Shown: in pieces, positions 243 to 9,660 of the stretch
Position numbering within the stretch: the first letter of the stretch is position 1
Layout: every line of letters starts with the position of its first letter
IMG/VR virus record: IMGVR_UViG_2706794688_000013
Length of the DNA stretch: 9,660 nucleotides
Direction: 5' to 3' (one strand)
Origin: a virus
Taxonomy: Duplodnaviria > Heunggongvirae > Uroviricota > Caudoviricetes
Made by a program: the position numbers and the translations under genes
The notes under the pieces: model-generated
Told to the model about the DNA's origin: nothing
The model's database searches: none
Seen by the model: the letters and a program-made list of their open reading frames with translations, nothing else

Positions 243-1325
243 TCATTTTCTCTGGCTGATCTTTACCGGATAACCATCCCGAAGATCAATTAAGTGCTCC
301 GGTTCAGAAGCAAACCATGCATAAGATCCCCACGCCAATTCTGGTATTGCCTTTTTAAAAGGCAGAGCACTTCTGTCCATAAATGCCGTAAGGAATGCAA
401 GATTTTTCTCGCTGAACCCAGCGTCAATAGCCAAATGAGTGAGAGTAACTTTTCGTTCCCTGTTTATAGGCCCATCTGTCGCAACTACTTCAGTGAAAAC
501 TACAAGCATGTCCGAACCCGTTCGGTCCTCTCCCAAATCAATCAAAATAATATCTGGAAGTGCTTTTGAGGCATCAATATTCAGCCCCAATGCTTTTGCC
601 AATACATCATCCTGAGCAACAACTTTATTCCCGGATTCAGACAACCAGAGCACAGTTGGATTCTTAAGAAAATTAGGAGCAAAAACTTCGATGACGGCCT
701 TAGCTATTGTACTTGACGGGCCCGGAGCTAAAGTTCTCTTCTCTCCATTTGGGAAAGTGACGACTACGGCATCAGCAGCAATCACTGCCCCTGATTTCAA
801 TAAACGCAACCTAGCAAGAGCGGCTTTGTTCAAATGATTTTCTTGCCAGGAACTTATTGCACTCAGCAGCGAATCTCCTTCAAGCCCGGCATCAAAGAGT
901 GCTGCAAAAGAGCGATTCAAACTGTAACGAGGACGAGAGGATGTGGTGGGTATACCTTTACGCTCAACAATTGCATTGCAAGGTATTAGGCCATTTTTTA
1001 TAGTTTCATCACGTATTGGCTCACGCGTATTTTCCGCATACCATGCATCAGCAGGCCTTATCTTTTGTTTAGAGAAAGTCATCTTTACCCAGCTTTCTCT
1101 GGACGCATCATCAGTAAGAGCAGCCTGCGAATCTCCCATACTTACAACCTGGCTGGGCCTTATCCATCGCCCCAGCCCCTCAACCGCACCAGCATAAAAC
1201 ATGACAAAAATTGTTTTTGCAGCTATTTCCCGAATTAAATATCCACGATTCTCAGTCCCTTCAGGGAAAATTAATTGTAATCTTTCCCGGATAACATTCA
1301 ATGGGGGAACAACAGGCAGATTCAT
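243..1325 (-). CDS. Putative Type II restriction endonuclease (BsuBI/PstI-like, tentative)
   Basis: 360-aa ORF whose ATG (1325..1323) overlaps the TGA of the upstream methyltransferase in an ATGA arrangement, indicating translational coupling. Stop TGA at 245..243. The family assignment rests on operon context and my recollection of BsuBI/PstI-family sequences; no catalytic motif was verified. Confidence 0.55.
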   Translation of the reverse strand: MNLPVVPPLNVIRERLQLIFPEGTENRGYLIREIAAKTIFVMFYAGAVEGLGRWIRPSQVVSMGDSQAALTDDASRESWVKMTFSKQKIRPADAWYAENTREPIRDETIKNGLIPCNAIVERKGIPTTSSRPRYSLNRSFAALFDAGLEGDSLLSAISSWQENHLNKAALARLRLLKSGAVIAADAVVVTFPNGEKRTLAPGPSSTIAKAVIEVFAPNFLKNPTVLWLSESGNKVVAQDDVLAKALGLNIDASKALPDIILIDLGEDRTGSDMLVVFTEVVATDGPINRERKVTLTHLAIDAGFSEKNLAFLTAFMDRSALPFKKAIPELAWGSYAWFASEPEHLIDLRDGYPVKISQRK

Positions 1326-3154
1326 GCAATCATCACTCCATAGAAACCAGCGATAGTTCTCTCAATAATCCGTCTGTGGACGCCAGCATCAATTAACGAT
1401 TGAATCTCCATCACCTGCTCCAGAGAAGGCAACGGGATTGAATTCAATTCATAGGCCGAAACAGCAACACTTCCGCTTATACACCTGAACGCCCGATCGA
1501 CAACATGCGAATTAAGTAGCATATCAATAACATCAGGGCGAACCGCAGAGAACAATCCGTTTGAATATACAATATTAATATGGTTTTCAACTACTACGCC
1601 ACCAGTTTCATCTATAAATCCCTGAGGTAAAATTGCCGCTAAAATCCTTCTGTCCTGTTCCTTCGATGTTGTCCGCTGAACAAGCACACATTCAGATTTT
1701 GTCACAAGGAAACCCTGTTGTGGGGTTATATCGATATAGGGAACATGATTTTTTCTGTCTGCACTAAAACGAAAACCAGCTGAAGTTATTGATTCCGCCC
1801 AGACTAATGGGTAGCTATTTTTTCCTTTCGTCGTACGCAACTGCGACTTAAATCGATTCCAGACTAACTGACCTGTAGAGACTGAGTATCCCAGATCAGC
1901 TAAACGCGTAGACATCTGTTTTAATACATTAAGAAAACAGGCATCATCTTTAACGCGTGGCAAAAGCCACGTTGCTCCACCTTTTTCTATATCAACATTA
2001 CCTATTTTCTCAATTTTTGCTTTGTTCAACCCCTTAGGGACAAGTGAGGATACCTGGGCCCGAACTTTATGTTCTCCCGCCTTGAATGCTGTCAACATTG
2101 TTTCCTGGAGAACATCGTCAAAGACCCCATCCCTGTCAGTGACGAAATCAAGGGCATACGGAGTAGTTTTTTCGGTCAAAAGGGTTCGCAGCGCGGTGAA
2201 ATACTGCCCACCAAGAAAAGAAGTTGGCGTAAGAAATGCAATAACTCCTGTTTTCTCTTTAACCATGCGAACAGCTAAGTCGGTGAACAATCCATATAGA
2301 TTTGCATGACCAAATAACGAACGAGAATATTTTTCTCTCGTTTTAATATCGAGAGTGACACGTCCGTAAGGCGGATTCCCTACCACAAGATCATAACCAG
2401 AAAATTTATCTTGCTGAAGCGCATCAGCAACAATAATTGTATCTTCAGGCAATCTACGTTTTACCTTTACACATAGTGGCATTAGTACAGATTCGAGCAA
2501 TACCAAACTCATCCAAGCCGCAAATGGATCGATCTCTATCCCCTTTAAACGACGACTGATTCTCCTCAACATCCATTCAGGGGAAGACCCCTTGTCTTTT
2601 TTTAACATTCGAATGGCTACTGGTGCCAAAAATGCACCGCCACCACACGCAGGATCAATAACCGATGCATGAGAAAAATCAACACCAGACTTTTCAGCCA
2701 GGTCCAAGAGACGCGCTACCAAAGGTGGGGGGGTATAGTAAGCCCCCAATTCCGAACGGTAAGCGGATGGCAGCATTACCGTATAAATTGACCCAATCAG
2801 ATATCCAGCGTCCTCCGCCGGAAATTGAGCAATAAGCTCACCTGTTCGTTCAGCGAGCTCGCGTGCATCACATGGAATGTCTTCTATGTAAACAGTGTGC
2901 GGTACTGCCCTCATTTTAATGCTGCTTTTTTGCTTTTTTGCAAGGGTATCCCAATATGCAGCTACGATGCTGAAGCAGTATGAGCGGGCATGCATCAACC
3001 TTGACTGCCCGGTTTTGTAATTGCCCGCATAACCTTTGGCCATGGCTTTACAAGTTTGATATCTTTCCAGATTAGAAAACTCATTATCTGTAAAAAAATC
3101 AAAATGTTGCACATTCATAATGTAAAATCCTAATGTATCAAACATGCGGGCCAT
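1322..3154 (-). CDS. N6-adenine DNA methyltransferase (gamma-class amino-methyltransferase)
   Basis: 610-aa ORF with motif order X (ELGAYYTPPPLV), I (VIDPACGGGAFLAP, the AdoMet-binding loop) and IV (VVGNPPYGRV, the NPPY catalytic motif), followed by a long C-terminal region consistent with a target-recognition domain. The start could be 3154, 3145 or 3118; the ATG at 3118 has the best Shine-Dalgarno (TAGGAT). Confidence 0.85.
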   Translation of the reverse strand: MARMFDTLGFYIMNVQHFDFFTDNEFSNLERYQTCKAMAKGYAGNYKTGQSRLMHARSYCFSIVAAYWDTLAKKQKSSIKMRAVPHTVYIEDIPCDARELAERTGELIAQFPAEDAGYLIGSIYTVMLPSAYRSELGAYYTPPPLVARLLDLAEKSGVDFSHASVIDPACGGGAFLAPVAIRMLKKDKGSSPEWMLRRISRRLKGIEIDPFAAWMSLVLLESVLMPLCVKVKRRLPEDTIIVADALQQDKFSGYDLVVGNPPYGRVTLDIKTREKYSRSLFGHANLYGLFTDLAVRMVKEKTGVIAFLTPTSFLGGQYFTALRTLLTEKTTPYALDFVTDRDGVFDDVLQETMLTAFKAGEHKVRAQVSSLVPKGLNKAKIEKIGNVDIEKGGATWLLPRVKDDACFLNVLKQMSTRLADLGYSVSTGQLVWNRFKSQLRTTKGKNSYPLVWAESITSAGFRFSADRKNHVPYIDITPQQGFLVTKSECVLVQRTTSKEQDRRILAAILPQGFIDETGGVVVENHINIVYSNGLFSAVRPDVIDMLLNSHVVDRAFRCISGSVAVSAYELNSIPLPSLEQVMEIQSLIDAGVHRRIIERTIAGFYGVMIA

Positions 3155-5479: not shown

Positions 5480-5732
5480 NNNNNNNNNNNNNNNNNNNNN
5501 NNNNNNNNNNNNNNNNNNNNNNNNNNNNNNNNNNNNNNNNNNNNNNNNNNNNNNNNNNNNNNNNNNNNNNNNNNNNNNNNNNNNNNNNNNNNNNNNNNNN
5601 NNNNNNNNNNNNNNNNNNNNNNNNNNNNNNNNNNNNNNNNNNNNNNNNNNNNNNNNNNNNNNNNNNNNNNNNNNNNNNNNNNNNNNNNNNNNNNNNNNNN
5701 NNNNNNNNNNNNNNNNNNNNNNNNNNNNNNNN
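5480..5732. other. Assembly gap (253 N)
   Basis: Uninterrupted run of n. The X-containing ORFs reported across it are reading artefacts. Confidence 0.99.
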
Positions 5733-6742
5733 CAACGCTGGTTGTTCGTGCCGCTTACCGGGAGCAACCAGGGGTTTTCAAAATTCCGGTCCGGCCCAAA
5801 AAACGTCGTCGCTCGCTGAACAAATTCCGTTCCCGCTTTCCCGGTCGCCGCCAGGTATCTCGCGTAACGCCTCACACCATCCAGCATGGTCTCTGGTGGC
5901 ACCCCCTCGCGCAATCTGGCCTTCCAGGCACTGAATGCGGATTTCTTCGGGTTTGCCCCGGCACGCAACGGGTATTCCCGCCAGACCTGTTCGAACACAT
6001 CCGGATAATCCACTCGTCCCACAGGCTGCCCGGTGTTTTCCGGGGCTACCCGATCGGCTTCCCGCTGAATGGCGGAATCGGCTTCAGGCTGCTGCAGTTG
6101 GAGTGATTGCTCCGGCCTTGCGGTCATCACCTGCTGCACAGCGCCCGAATCGGCTTTCAGCGCATACGCTGAATCGGCTTCCGGTGTCGAGCCTGCTGGC
6201 TGACCAGGATTGACGGTCTGAACATCCCCTGCCTGGTTCGTGGCGTTTTTTACGCCATGGACCATAGTGTTTTGATCTTCTTTATCTGTATCTTTATCTG
6301 TATCTGTCGTGACTCGTCGTGACATGTGCGTGACATTTCGTGACGCGCCGTGACAATCGCCATTTTGTTCCCGCTTTCTTTCCCTCTCTCGCTGCGCCCT
6401 CTTGCGCTCTGCAGGAGATTTTGCGGTTTGCGAAATATTGCCGTTGTCCTCTTTAAGCACCTGGCGTTTTTCCCATCCAGTGATTAAATCACCATCAAGT
6501 ACCCGCCCCTGCATCGTCTGCAAAATTGAATCAATTACCTCTTCTGTCACGTCGAGCGCACTTGCCAAATCTTCTGTCGTGACATCAATGTGACCTCGCG
6601 TGACATTTCGTGACGCGCTCACCAGGAGGTGGATATACACTGCCATCACTGTTGCAATTGGCTGCCCTGACACCCTGGCAATTGTTCGCCACTTAGGGTC
6701 ATTTGGCATGTCATGCCATAATCTGAGCCAGGCGTTAGCCAT
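5733..6742 (-). CDS. Phage replication initiator / replisome organiser (lambda O-like); 3' end lost in the N gap
   Basis: ATG at 6742 is preceded by GAGGTGA. The C-terminal visible part has the W..YP.....K..A...W motif (VWREYPLRAGANPKKSAFSAWKARL) that I associate with phage replication proteins. The gene contains the iteron arrays. Gene order (Cro-like, YdaT-like, this gene, DnaC-like) matches Rac-type early-right operons. Confidence 0.7.
6280..6303. repeat. Perfect 12-bp tandem duplication (CTTTATCTGTAT x2) in an AT-rich stretch
   Basis: Read directly: 6280..6291 equals 6292..6303. It lies inside the O-like gene, where it encodes a TDKDTDKED repeat, immediately next to iteron cluster 1. Confidence 0.8.
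6308..6354. repeat. Iteron cluster 1: five CGTGAC hexamers phased at 10-11 bp
   Basis: CGTGAC at 6308, 6318, 6329, 6339 and 6349, about one per helical turn. Confidence 0.65.
6578..6614. repeat. Iteron cluster 2: four (C/T)GTGAC hexamers phased at 10-11 bp
   Basis: Hexamers at 6578, 6589, 6599 and 6609, plus an inverted copy GTCACG at 6546..6551. A 21-bp stretch (6598..6618) is identical to 6328..6348 in cluster 1. Confidence 0.65.
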
Positions 6743-6813
6743 ACTCACCTCTTCTGATACCGAATCTTTTTACTCACGAGTTGCCGGGAGCGATTCGATA
6801 TGGCTATTGTCAG

Positions 6814-7239
6814 TCAATGTACTGCCACAGCATTTCCTGCCGGGCCACCACGGTTCATCTGATTGAAACCGGCGATTGCCACTGCGACAAAATCATCAGC
6901 GTCTCTCACCAGTCGTTCATGCGTCTCCACCAGTTCCCGAAAATAAGCTGAACTGTGGCTGCGCATTCGAGCCACCAGCGGAGGTGGCATTGCCCTTTCG
7001 ATCGCAGGTAACAACGCCTGAATTTTTTCAACAGCGTCAGGGGTGTCTTTATCCAGCCAACGGAAAATCTTTTGGGTGTTGAGATAAAGCGTGTTGTGCT
7101 TGCTGTCGTTATGCAGAACCGGAAACGTCATTCCCAGTTCGAAATAAACCCTGGTTATTTCAGCTGCCGGAACTTTTTCACCGTCCGGATGCGCCCAGGC
7201 TTTCATCGCCATGCGGATGTGTTCATGCTTGATTTTCAT
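6814..7239 (-). CDS. YdaT-like protein (Rac-prophage family; proposed CII-like regulator)
   Basis: 141 aa beginning MKIKHEHI, which I recall as the N-terminus of E. coli Rac YdaT. Its ATG (7239..7237) overlaps the TGA of the upstream Cro-like gene (ATGA), and GGGGG lies upstream. Confidence 0.65.
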   Translation of the reverse strand: MKIKHEHIRMAMKAWAHPDGEKVPAAEITRVYFELGMTFPVLHNDSKHNTLYLNTQKIFRWLDKDTPDAVEKIQALLPAIERAMPPPLVARMRSHSSAYFRELVETHERLVRDADDFVAVAIAGFNQMNRGGPAGNAVAVH

Positions 7240-7499
7240 GAATCAACCCCCGCCGATGGTTGTGTGTTAGCCTGAAACTCAGCAGGCAAGCCGTCAGTTG
7301 GGTTGGGGTAGGTTTTACTGTCAATCTCATGTGGGGTCACCACCCATCCCGTTGCTTCACACCAACGTAATATTTTTTCTCCTGTAAGTTTTGCACGCCC
7401 CGTTATAACGTGGCTGACCATCCCTTGGGATGCGCCAACAATCTCAGCAAATGAACTCTGGGTTATATGAAAATGATGCAAATATTCTCCAAGATTCAT
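7236..7499 (-). CDS. Cro/YdaS-like HTH regulator
   Basis: ATG at 7499 is preferred over the ORF track's TTG at 7526. HTH-like segment QSSFAEIVGASQGMVSHVITGRAKLTGEKI. Transcribed divergently from the repressor gene and first in the replication operon. Confidence 0.6.
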   Translation of the reverse strand: MNLGEYLHHFHITQSSFAEIVGASQGMVSHVITGRAKLTGEKILRWCEATGWVVTPHEIDSKTYPNPTDGLPAEFQANTQPSAGVDS

Positions 7500-7535
7500 A
7501 ATCCGCCCTATGTGATGTGTTACCAATGCATAATT

Positions 7536-7575
7536 AATAGCACTGTTATTTTTAAAAGTAAATAGTGATACTATT
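7536..7575. promoter_or_regulatory. Two operator-like 15-bp palindromes in the divergent promoter region
   Basis: 7536..7550 AATAGCactGTTATT and 7561..7575 AATAGTgatACTATT, 25 bp centre to centre. On the minus strand a TTTACT-17-TATTAA promoter-like pair (plus coordinates 7557..7562 and 7534..7539) overlaps them, so repressor binding would occlude the Cro-like promoter. Confidence 0.45.
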
Positions 7576-7610
7576 TCAAAGTGATTAGCAATCTTATTAG
7601 AATTGGATGT

Positions 7611-8111
7611 ATGAAAAGAAAATCATTGTCAGACACCGACCTCAACGCCGCCAGAAGACTGAAAGAAATCTGGATGGCAAAGAAATCTCAGTTGGGATTG
7701 ACTCAGGAACGTGCGGCGGAAATTATGGGGTTTTCAACACAAGGGGCGGTAAGTCACTACCTAAATGGTCAAACCCCACTAAACCTTGAGGCTGTTCTAA
7801 AGTTTGCTGGCTTACTGAAAGTTCCCCCTGAGTCAATCAGGCCAGACATGGTAGATTTGCTGCAAATTGCAAGGATGTATTGTCGAGAACCACAGCAAGA
7901 TAACATAGTCGCATTACCAGCAGACACAGAACAAACAGAGGATGAACTACCGTTTGCCGTAGAGCCGATGGAACGAGATTTAATCCATACGTTCAGAGCT
8001 TTTCCGAAAGAAGATCAAGAACACATGCTTCAGGAGATGAAAGATAAAAAAGAATCAATGGATCGTACGGTTGCGCGGTGGTTAGCTGCACAAAAAGGCC
8101 GTCGCGCCTAA
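7611..8111 (+). CDS. HTH (XRE-family) repressor; candidate immunity repressor and/or PaaR-like regulator of the downstream toxin-antitoxin pair
   Basis: ATG at 7611 is preferred over the ORF track's start at 7581. N-terminal HTH (LTQERAAEIMGFSTQGAVSHYLNG). No Ser-Lys peptidase (LexA/S24-like) C-terminal domain is recognisable. Divergent from the Cro-like gene. Confidence 0.7.
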   Translation: MKRKSLSDTDLNAARRLKEIWMAKKSQLGLTQERAAEIMGFSTQGAVSHYLNGQTPLNLEAVLKFAGLLKVPPESIRPDMVDLLQIARMYCREPQQDNIVALPADTEQTEDELPFAVEPMERDLIHTFRAFPKEDQEHMLQEMKDKKESMDRTVARWLAAQKGRRA

Positions 8112-8130
8112 ATCAGAGGAGATATGTAAA

Positions 8131-8325
8131 ATGAGTACAGTCCTTTCCCCAATGGTTTCAGAATTTGAGACAGTTGAGCAAGAAAATAGTTACAACGAAT
8201 GGCTGCGGGCCAAAGTAGCAGCAAGCCTCGCGGATCCCCGCCCGGCGATTCCGCATGATGAGGTAATGGCGGAAATGGAACAAATTATTGCCCAAATTGC
8301 TGCTGCAACTCACAGAGGTGAATAA
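8131..8325 (+). CDS. Small antitoxin (PaaA/ParD-like)
   Basis: 64-aa acidic protein directly upstream of a ParE-like toxin, with a 1-nt stop/start overlap (TAATG). Shine-Dalgarno GAGGA lies 10 nt upstream. Confidence 0.65.
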   Translation: MSTVLSPMVSEFETVEQENSYNEWLRAKVAASLADPRPAIPHDEVMAEMEQIIAQIAAATHRGE

Positions 8326-8615
8326 TGTTACCCGTTTTATGGCTACCATCTGCTCGTGATGATTTGCGCCAGATCGTAGCCTACATAGCTAAAGAAAATC
8401 CCGCGGCAGCACGCAGAATGAAAATTCGAATTGAAACATCCGTTTTGCCGCTCACAGAGCATCCTTACCTGTATCCTCCAAGCGAGCGAGTTCTTGGTCT
8501 TCGTGAAATTGTAACTCATCCTAACTACATCATCCTTTACCGAGTAACAGCATCAAGCATAGAAGTAGTAAATATTGTGCATTCTCGAAGACAGTATCCA
8601 GGCAAAAACAGTTAA
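8325..8615 (+). CDS. ParE/RelE-superfamily toxin
   Basis: 96 aa with the ParE-like pattern: N-terminal W..SARDDLRQIVAYI, then PYLYP...GLREIVTHPNYIILYRV, then VVNIVHSRRQYP at the C-terminus. Coupled to the antitoxin. Confidence 0.75.
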   Translation: MLPVLWLPSARDDLRQIVAYIAKENPAAARRMKIRIETSVLPLTEHPYLYPPSERVLGLREIVTHPNYIILYRVTASSIEVVNIVHSRRQYPGKNS

Positions 8616-8631
8616 TTATTCCCGCCGACAG

Positions 8632-8656
8632 AACCACCTTAGGGTGGTTTTTTCTT
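8632..8656 (+). terminator. Rho-independent terminator after the toxin gene
   Basis: Stem AACCACC (8632..8638), loop TTAG, stem GGTGGTT (8643..8649), running into TTTTTTCTT. Confidence 0.6.
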
Positions 8657-8671
8657 GCCCCAACAAAAAAC

Positions 8672-8714
8672 AATAGCGATGCTATTTACATCAAAAAAAA
8701 ATAATGATGCTATT
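8672..8714. promoter_or_regulatory. Second pair of operator-like palindromes (same consensus as 7536..7575)
   Basis: 8672..8686 AATAGCgatGCTATT (perfect 6-3-6 inverted repeat) and 8700..8714 AATAATgatGCTATT, 28 bp centre to centre. TTTACA at 8685..8690 could serve as a -35 for a rightward promoter. Confidence 0.4.
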
Positions 8715-8895
8715 GTTTCAGGCGTCAACCCACCCCGCCCCACAGAATGCAGGGCAATACTTCGAGTTACCAGACAGTGGTCAGGGGTTAAGTAGCCAGC
8801 CCGAGGCGTAAGAACATGACGGCAGGGTTCAATCTTTAACTATGCAGCAGGTTTTTTGTTCCGCCACCCCGGCGTTAAGGGGAAATGAGGTCAGC

Positions 8896-9048
8896 ATGGA
8901 TACTATCGATCTTGGCAACAACGAATCTCTGGTGTGCGGCGTGTTCCCTAACCAGGATGGAACGTTTACCGCCATGACGTATACCAAAAGCAAAACGTTT
9001 AAAACCGAATCTGGCGCGCGTTGCTGGTTAGCCAGAAACACTGACTGA
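8896..9048 (+). CDS. Small hypothetical prophage protein (50 aa)
   Basis: ATG at 8896 with GAGG 5 nt upstream; the ORF track's upstream extension has no ribosome-binding site. The sequence MDTIDLGNNESLV... resembles small proteins I associate with Rac-type prophages (YdaF-like), but that is from memory only. Confidence 0.5.
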   Translation: MDTIDLGNNESLVCGVFPNQDGTFTAMTYTKSKTFKTESGARCWLARNTD

Positions 9049-9059
9049 TGAGGCTGACG

Positions 9060-9425
9060 ATGGAATTTAAAGATTTACCGTCTGATGTACAGAAAACAGC
9101 AGCTCATACATTGCATTCTGTGCTGCGAGAAATCGGGAAAGATATTGCAAGCGAGCCAGCAAAAGATCTGGCCCGGAAAATCAAGACCGCTTTCGTTGAG
9201 CTTTATAATGTTGGCACTGACTCTGAAACTGTCGAGACCAAGACCGTAAGTTCACCAATATTCTCACTTGAGCCAAGCGTATTATCAGGTGAAATATGCA
9301 CCGAGATTTCCAGCGAACTGCTTCCGGTAATACGAGAAGCAATTCGCCGTCGCGGTTTGGATGGAAGTTATGATCATGACGTTCTGCAAGTTCTCAGGAC
9401 AATGGTGACTTCACTGGGGATTTGA
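9060..9425 (+). CDS. Hypothetical protein (about 121 aa)
   Basis: ATG at 9060 is preceded by GAGG with a 6-nt spacer; it follows the upstream gene's stop (9046..9048) by 11 nt. No recognisable motif. Confidence 0.5.
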   Translation: MEFKDLPSDVQKTAAHTLHSVLREIGKDIASEPAKDLARKIKTAFVELYNVGTDSETVETKTVSSPIFSLEPSVLSGEICTEISSELLPVIREAIRRRGLDGSYDHDVLQVLRTMVTSLGI

Positions 9426-9557
9426 TCCCTGCGTCCTCTAAGCTTTTGATATAGCGGTCCTCCAAGAAGCGGTAAATTTTGTCGAAATCATCTTTTCCCT
9501 CTGGTTTATTCAGAGGATTACAGGACCCGTAAGTAGCGGCATACATTTCAACCGTTT

Positions 9558-9660
9558 GGTAATGACTCCAACTTATTGATAGTGTTTTATGTTCAGATAA
9601 TGCCCGATGACTTTGTCATGCAGCTCCACCGATTTTGAGAACGACAGCGACTTCCGTCCC
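9558..9660 (-). mobile_element. IS1 right end (terminal inverted repeat plus the 3' end of insB), truncated by the window edge
   Basis: 9558 onward reads GGTAATGACTCCAACTTATTGATAGTGTTTTATGTTCAGATAATGCCCGATGACTTTGTCATGCAGCTCCACCGATTTTGAGAACGACAGCGACTTCCGTCCC, the complement of the IS1 right terminus and insB C-terminus (…SFSKSVELHDKVIGHYLNIKHYQ*) as I recall it. The insB stop corresponds to plus-strand 9574..9576. Confidence 0.85.

Follow-up and report, generated by a model that had tools for sequence, protein, structure and literature searches.

One of the closest described systems is the immunity region of the prophage CP-933P of E. coli O157:H7, in which the promoter PL933P and the operators OL1-3 lie beyond parE2 (Jurenas et al., 2021; PMC8630535). 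There, PaaR2 binding was shown at OR and repression at PL: in gfp fusions, PL933P is repressed about 100-fold by PaaR2 and likewise by YdaS (PMC8630535). PaaR2 is octameric, and looping between OR and OL has been raised for it; paaR2, together with cI, provides a precedent for a leaderless mRNA (PMC8630535), and a CII-like role has been demonstrated for YdaT (PMC8630535, PMC9986795). The second system is the cryptic prophage Qin with its dicC-dicA and dicBp regions (Ragunathan et al., 2023; Bejar et al., 1988, as cited in PMC10448788): dicBp is a lambda-PL-like promoter with three operators, is repressed by DicA and becomes 22-fold derepressed upon deletion of dicA (PMC10448788). DicA and PaaR2 also exemplify lambdoid repressors that lack an S24 domain (PMC10448788, PMC8630535). 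The OL/PL arrangement is already published for CP-933P and Qin, and the idea that it embodies is not new.

The locus described here lies in a window, meaning the whole stretch of 9,660 nucleotides that was analyzed, which comprises the immunity and replication region of a lambdoid prophage. Two palindromes in this window, at 8672-8686 and 8700-8714, very probably constitute OL of the immunity region. Its elements, in the order of their coordinates, are as follows.

6814 to 7239, minus strand: ydaT-like gene, functional analogue of cII (Pfam YdaT_toxin, E = 5e-9; "toxin YdaT family protein" in relatives)
7236 to 7499, minus strand: ydaS/cro-like HTH gene, transcribed from PR (open reading frame list; weak Pfam HTH_3 match below the curated cut-off)
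7534 to 7562, minus strand: PR-like promoter, -35 TTTACT (7562-7557), 17-bp spacer, TGc and -10 TATTAA (7542-7534)
7536 to 7550, no strand: OR1-like operator AATAGCACTGTTATT, overlapping the PR -10
7561 to 7575, no strand: OR2-like operator AATAGTGATACTATT, lying across the PR -35 and directly next to the PRM -35
7575 to 7603, plus strand: PRM-like promoter, TTCAAA (7575-7580), 17-bp spacer, TAGAAT (7598-7603), found by the consensus scan here and in the E. coli relative L001
7584 to 7598, no strand: putative weak OR3-like site ATTAGCAATCTTATT inside PRM, with two mismatches to the 10 conserved positions
7611 to 8111, plus strand: repressor of 166 aa, with a lambda-cI-like N-terminal HTH and a PaaR-type C-terminal module
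8131 to 8325, plus strand: PaaA2-family antitoxin (Pfam PaaA2, E = 3e-23; PDB 3ZBE PaaA2, E = 1e-23)
8325 to 8615, plus strand: ParE2-type toxin (Pfam ParE_toxin, E = 2e-17; PDB 5CW7 ParE2, E = 7e-37)
8630 to 8656, plus strand: intrinsic terminator of the repressor-toxin-antitoxin operon, AACCACC-ttag-GGTGGTT followed by a T-run (fold -15.1 kcal/mol, z = -3.8)
8672 to 8686, no strand: promoter-distal OL operator AATAGCGATGCTATT, the final two T's of which open the PL -35
8685 to 8716, plus strand: PL-like promoter, -35 TTTACA (8685-8690), TGc and -10 TATTGT (8708-8716)
8693 to 8701, no strand: A9 homopolymer between the OL sites, polymorphic in length (A5, A6, A8, A9)
8700 to 8714, no strand: promoter-proximal OL operator AATAATGATGCTATT, overlapping the extended -10 of PL
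8729 to 8895, plus strand: conserved leader of the PL operon, about 170 nt, delimited by an alignment of five immunity types and starting at the cassette boundary
8896 to 9048, plus strand: ydfA (DUF1391), the first gene past PL (Pfam DUF1391, E = 1e-28; ydfA in relatives and Qin)
9048 to 9425, plus strand: open reading frame of 125 aa, the second gene past PL, with a start possibly at 9060 (open reading frame list; no Pfam match)

The locus follows CP-933P in the order of its elements: ydaT, ydaS, OR, regulator, PaaA, ParE, OL/PL and conserved leader. Toxin and antitoxin are close homologues of their CP-933P counterparts, PL is located directly upstream of the same leader, and the hexamers of PL and PR mirror each other. 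The differences are in the DNA-binding domain, which is lambda-cI-like in the window, in contrast to the N-terminal domain of PaaR2 (PDB 7NKV); in the operator, AATAG-N5-CTATT, which is unrelated to the GTTTAGTAA-type repeats of CP-933P; and in OL itself, which has three sites in CP-933P but two recognisable ones in the window, where the PL spacer measures 20 bp.

The resemblance to lambda lies in divergent repressor and cro-like genes around a tripartite OR, the -35-proximal site of which abuts the PRM -35, in an OL/PL that is placed beyond the repressor operon and faces in the same direction, in an accessory module in the place of rexAB, and in a repressor N-terminal domain homologous to that of cI. 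The OR centres are 25 and 23 bp apart (24 and 23 bp in lambda), and about 1.1 kb separates the centres of OR and OL in the window and similarly in all relatives (about 2.3-2.4 kb in lambda). Unlike lambda, the window encodes a repressor without the S24 autocleavage domain and a toxin-antitoxin pair instead of rexAB; OL has two sites as opposed to three, and neither an N gene nor nutL was recognised downstream. In lambda, binding of the repressor to both operator clusters, repression of PL and OR-OL looping have been demonstrated. Qin shares with the window a PL-like promoter with operators directly upstream of ydfA, repression, predicted for the window, by a non-cleavable cI analogue, and a single palindrome family present both at the divergent promoter region and ahead of ydfA, represented in K-12 by the DicA sites at dicC-dicA and ahead of ydfA. 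It differs in its DicA operator, which is TTAGYYATRRCTAA-like, and in that its repressor gene and promoter are not separated by a toxin-antitoxin pair. Most of the long leader is missing from K-12, and the dicF-dicB part of the operon is missing from the window.

The repressor that would act at these sites combines parts of two families. Residues 2-81 are related to the N-terminal DNA-binding domain of lambda cI (PDB 1LMB, E = 3e-9). Pfam matched only HTH_3/HTH_31, and an S24 peptidase domain was not found in the repressor, so that induction cannot proceed via RecA-stimulated self-cleavage. PaaR2, the sequence of which was taken from an O157:H7 genome (L057, 2110-2481) and starts with MQKKE, the published N-terminus (PMC8630535), matches the window repressor only in the last 44 residues (52% identity, E = 5e-15), and in an alignment of seven regulators one C-terminal module is joined to at least three different N-terminal domains. 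Judged by its sequence, the window repressor is a domain-swapped member of the PaaR group and not an orthologue of PaaR2. As in the three-component paaR-paaA-parE module, or RAE locus, a PaaA2 antitoxin gene is followed by a ParE2 toxin gene, and the PaaR-type regulator of such a locus is matched in position, orientation and the C-terminal 44 residues, but the N-terminal DNA-binding domain is of another type. No publication that characterises this regulator type or its operator specificity came up in a literature search directed at PaaR1/paaA1, and a protein search of the genome contig collection with the repressor returned no match. Elsewhere, in the related viral contig L051 (2321-3125), two tandem PaaR-type regulators (123 aa and about 132-157 aa) stand ahead of paaA-parE; their N-terminal domains differ and their C-terminal module is the same.

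The ydaS/cro-like gene is divergent from the repressor gene, as it is in CP-933P (PMC8630535). The 111 bp between the two genes hold two strong sites and one weak site together with a minus-strand PR and a plus-strand PRM, and thereby present the divergent repressor and cro-like genes, multiple operators and face-to-face promoters of a lambdoid immunity region. Along the minus strand, the operator AATAGTATCACTATT (7575-7561) leads into PR, its last two T's starting the -35 TTTACT, and the TGc and -10 of PR (7542-7534) lie inside the second operator (7550-7536). PR is absent from the list of the consensus promoter scan of the region because its -10 is without the final T. The PRM -10 ends 7 nt ahead of the ATG at 7611, and a clear Shine-Dalgarno sequence is not seen there; the predicted repressor start is compatible with a leaderless mRNA such as those of cI and of paaR2 in CP-933P (PMC8630535). 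The OR3-like site taken by itself is not above chance (7 matches against 3.8 expected at up to two mismatches), and what speaks for it is its place, 23 bp from OR2, and its conservation. At 7229-7246, the YdaT operator TTGATTN6AATCAA known from the literature has an exact counterpart, TTGATTTTCATGAATCAA, which straddles the ydaS stop and the ydaT start; there is one exact match, with 0.9 expected at up to two mismatches, and by analogy with CP-933P its place is that expected of a PRE-like, YdaT-activated promoter (PMC9986795, PMC8630535).

The two palindromes at 8672-8686 and 8700-8714 had been pointed out by the initial annotation, and their sequences are exactly as it gave them. It had also assigned them a consensus shared with the pair at 7536-7575 and had proposed a search for further copies. 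The shared consensus holds: one degenerate pattern, AATARYNNNRYTATT, matches on both strands of the 9660 bp at four places only (starts 7536, 7561, 8672 and 8700), compared to 0.01 matches expected by chance, and four or more matches occurred in 0 of 200 dinucleotide-preserving shuffles. One refinement concerns the half-sites and the 3-bp spacer proposed with them (6+3+6). Among 23 distinct 15-mers collected from relatives at the four strong positions, bases 1-4 (AATA) and 12-15 (TATT) are invariant, G predominates at base 5 and C at base 11, and the centre is variable; this pattern gives a half-site of about 5 bp and a 5-bp centre (AATAG-N5-CTATT). An operator of this form does not appear to have been described before. 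The centres of the paired sites are 25 bp apart at OR and 28 bp apart at OL of the window. The looser AATA-N7-TATT is confined to OR and OL within the window, and in related contigs of up to 14 kb it has one extra match on each of three contigs.

Guided by protein sequence, a scan of viral contigs yielded 51 loci, and 48 loci, annotated E. coli relatives included, encode a repressor 77-100% identical to that of the window. In all 48, the motif is found at positions -75 and -50 relative to the repressor ATG, and it recurs some 1050-1090 bp downstream. The OR1-like site, fixed at -75, retains its outer bases in 47 of the 48; at the OR2-like site the central 5 bp are hypervariable in the related loci and the outer bases are invariant. 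In the OR core, which spans 84 columns, variation is seen in 8 of the 15 columns of the centres and in 2 of the 30 outer ones (Fisher p = 0.0009). Conservation at OR is not specific to the operators, the whole OR region being kept across subtypes, and only at OL do the sites stand out clearly from variable flanks: there, the sequence from the terminator to the first site and that past the second one change from subtype to subtype, and the sites are retained. The three subtypes being related, their sites are non-independent observations. The operator centres 7541-7545, 7566-7570 and 8677-8681 are the most variable positions of a near-invariant control region, with 10 alleles at the middle OR site and 6 at the first OL site. 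This variability may reflect tuning of affinity via non-contacted bases, or the centres may simply be unconstrained.

The OL sites are placed over a promoter. In the closest relatives they are 25 bp apart and cover the -35 and the extended -10 of TTTACA-17-TGcTATTGT on the plus strand, and in L001, the closest E. coli relative, with a 99% identical repressor, the consensus scan scores TTTACA-17-TATTGT with an upstream TG over both sites. PR and PL, each read along its own strand (minus and plus, respectively), can be aligned collinearly and base by base in the window and three relatives. A second cluster with the consensus of the first overlaps an outward promoter in the orientation of the repressor gene, with a spacer of 20 bp in the window versus 17 bp in relatives. 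Because of the 20-bp spacer, no plus-strand promoter at OL of the window passes the consensus scan. A third OL site was not found within two mismatches near 8640-8740, which leaves two recognisable sites only. Just upstream, the terminator hairpin is kept in all relatives, with changes in the loop only, and a permissive Rfam search, run over the entire window, gave no match at or around 8616-8900 that would explain the sites or the leader.

The boundary of the immunity cassette lies immediately past these sites. From about 8726-8729 onward, some dozen bases past the second OL site, the sequence is homologous to many other prophages, and phage matches to a query made of 7200-9450 begin at its position 1527, which is 8726 of the window. 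Of 5426 complete E. coli genomes, about 70 carry the immunity type, its subtypes included, whereas 4406 match part of the same query, mostly the conserved leader. This leader is common to five immunity types (the window, CP-933P, phage Tritos, phage vB_EcoS-640R1 and L055), which are unalignable upstream of it, and across these heteroimmune prophages it is near-invariant, far above the adjacent immunity genes. Each of the three relatives inspected on this point has repeats of its own both at OR and just upstream of the leader: GTAC-rich in Tritos, of the TGTTTT/AAAACA type in 640R1 and of the GTTTAGT type in CP-933P. Since heteroimmune relatives carry their own palindromes at OR and at the leader, the OL sites travel with the repressor gene, and operators and repressor gene move together as an exchangeable cassette. 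The lambda OR/OL reading offered by the initial annotation is thus upheld by the cI-like repressor encoded between the two clusters, the cassette boundary, the palindromes of heteroimmune prophages and the precedents of CP-933P and Qin (PMC8630535, PMC10448788); the outward promoter that it predicted is borne out in the closest relatives, where it is scored and collinear with PR, and not by the scan of the window with its 20-bp spacer.

A structured antitermination RNA in the leader was considered and dropped, 8722-8900 being no more structured than its shuffles (z = +1.4), although a leader so close to invariant offers no covariation to go by. Downstream, ydfA is followed by the 125-aa open reading frame and by IS1 at 9558, and ydfB, ydfC, dicF and dicB, which come after ydfA in the dicBp operon of Qin, are all missing from the window; dicB is present downstream in L001-L003. 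At the DNA level, the 125-aa frame shares 97.5% identity with part of phage mEp460, and L055 has a 106-aa frame that shares its N-terminus, MEFKDLP.

The 20-bp spacer results from the homopolymer between the OL sites, the length of which varies among 12 loci with 99-100% identical repressors, and with it the promoter spacer and the helical phasing of the two operators:

A5: 1 locus (L012); promoter spacer 16 bp, operator spacing 24 bp
A6: 6 loci (L001, L068, L008, L009, L013, L014); promoter spacer 17 bp, operator spacing 25 bp
A8: 3 loci (L006, L007, L010); promoter spacer 19 bp, operator spacing 27 bp
A9: 2 loci (L011 and the window); promoter spacer 20 bp, operator spacing 28 bp

Other subtypes are without a homopolymer at this place and keep 25 bp, with a single exception at 26 bp. 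The A8 and A9 alleles occur only in the lineage in which the contigs reach an IS1 at 9558. The last bases of the window (9558-9660) are a terminal portion of this IS1, and several related contigs end inside IS1; L008 and L014, which are 99.2-99.8% identical to the window over 5733-9557 and IS1-free, diverge from it exactly at 9557 and are both A6. Three independent assemblies carry A8, and a sequencing artefact is therefore unlikely. With the 20-bp spacer that it creates, the expansion from A6 to A9 probably weakens or inactivates PL in the window copy, to judge by promoter sequence. The simplest reading of this is decay of PL in a cryptic prophage, the left operon of which is already interrupted. 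It is quite unlikely that the run instead serves as a slippage-prone tract inside the PL spacer that tunes or switches PL; if it did, it would confer heritable, reversible and repressor-independent silencing of a toxic early-left operon. In exact-pattern scans, the OL pair with a variable gap had no match in the genome or metagenome contig collections and, in the viral contigs, none beyond the nine contigs already in the set, and the sample of A-runs stays at n = 12. The A5, A6, A8 and A9 alleles form a natural series for the effects of spacer length and operator phasing on a PL-type promoter.

The state of the A-run bears on the most serious alternative to a functional OL, namely that the sites of this copy are a decaying remnant that may still bind the repressor but controls no working promoter; the only role left to them, if any, would be that of auxiliary sites aiding repression of PR/PRM via long-range repressor contacts. 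Such long-range contacts would find a parallel in PaaR2, which has the same C-terminal module, was reported to be octameric and for which looping was proposed (PMC8630535). The remnant also agrees with the A9 run, the 20-bp spacer and the failure to score a plus-strand promoter in the window, as well as with the restriction of A8/A9 to the lineage with IS1 at 9558, the IS1-free prophages of 99.2-99.8% identity being A6. Yet both operators and the promoter hexamers are otherwise intact and identical to those of the A6 alleles. At sigma-70 promoters, an extended -10 (TGn) partly compensates for a poor -35 or poor spacing, and the one present here may partly offset the long spacer. This explanation, which overall is unlikely, concerns the state of the present copy and does not offer another identity for the element.

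Two further explanations would change that identity. The sites could regulate a leftward promoter, TTGACG-16-CATTAT (8728-8701, minus strand), antisense to the parE/toxin-antitoxin operon; it matches the consensus at 9 of 12 positions in both the window and L001, and its -10 overlaps the 8700-8714 site. Promoter-like matches in the region are, however, at the level of shuffles (3 versus 3.6), and the -35 is degraded in other subtypes (TTGATG with a 15-bp spacer; GTGATG) while the plus-strand PL elements are intact. Transcription from it would moreover meet a bidirectional-looking terminator hairpin at once, and no precedent is reported from CP-933P or Qin. Highly improbable as a target of the sites, this minus-strand promoter was rejected as not conserved in other subtypes and probably a chance match. 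Chance has also been considered for the sites themselves, as fortuitous matches or as a non-functional local duplication of OR to which no protein binds. The AT-rich composition and simplicity of the motif are all that can be said in favor of this barely credible account; against it stand the expectation of 0.01 matches per window, the fixation of the sites in 48 loci of three subtypes while flanks and centres change, and the analogous pairs of sites in four other immunity types. The preferred reading remains that the two palindromes are OL.

At an OL of this kind, dimers of the repressor (7611-8111) would bind the two sites through the outer AATAG/CTATT bases, and the precedent of CP-933P makes it probable that the Cro-like YdaS homologue does so too. 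In the presumed ancestral state, with the sites 25 bp apart over the -35 and the extended -10, occupancy would shut off the early-left operon, which under PL would comprise the conserved leader, ydfA and the downstream genes. The terminator at 8630-8656 would insulate PL from the PRM-driven repressor-PaaA-ParE operon, and the same repressor bound at OR (7536-7598) would repress PR and autoregulate PRM. The analysis consists of motif statistics, the conservation pattern, promoter geometry, and positional and protein homologies, and on these grounds we infer repressor binding, repression, cooperativity and OR-OL looping at these sites. Since the C-terminal module is shared with octameric PaaR2, higher-order assembly of the repressor is plausible, and, by the same analogy, so is looping between OR and OL. 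The three subtypes, at repressor identities of 100%, 80% and 78%, do not differ in the recognition-helix region, in keeping with the half-site that they share, and are predicted to be homoimmune.

These findings assign a motif and a PR/PRM/PL geometry to an uncharacterised immunity type, which carries little weight beyond annotation. They also show that PaaR-type regulators are modular, with one C-terminal module combined with at least three DNA-binding domains and with operators that match at OR and OL. The result favors the published view that paaA-parE are passengers of lambdoid immunity regions in the position of rexAB over that of an autonomous three-component toxin-antitoxin system.

The rest of the window, to the left of ydaT on the minus strand, holds replication genes (among them one for a DnaC/IstB-like ATPase) and DUF1627 and DUF977 genes. 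The replication genes are interrupted by a masked stretch at 5480-5732 (N's, translated as X), in which 253 masked bases stand against about 296 bp in L006 and L007. Further to the left, a BsuBI/PstI-family restriction endonuclease (243-1325, minus strand) is adjoined by an Eco57I/N6-methylase-like protein (1322-3154, minus strand), and 243-3154 looks like a restriction-modification cargo module of the prophage.
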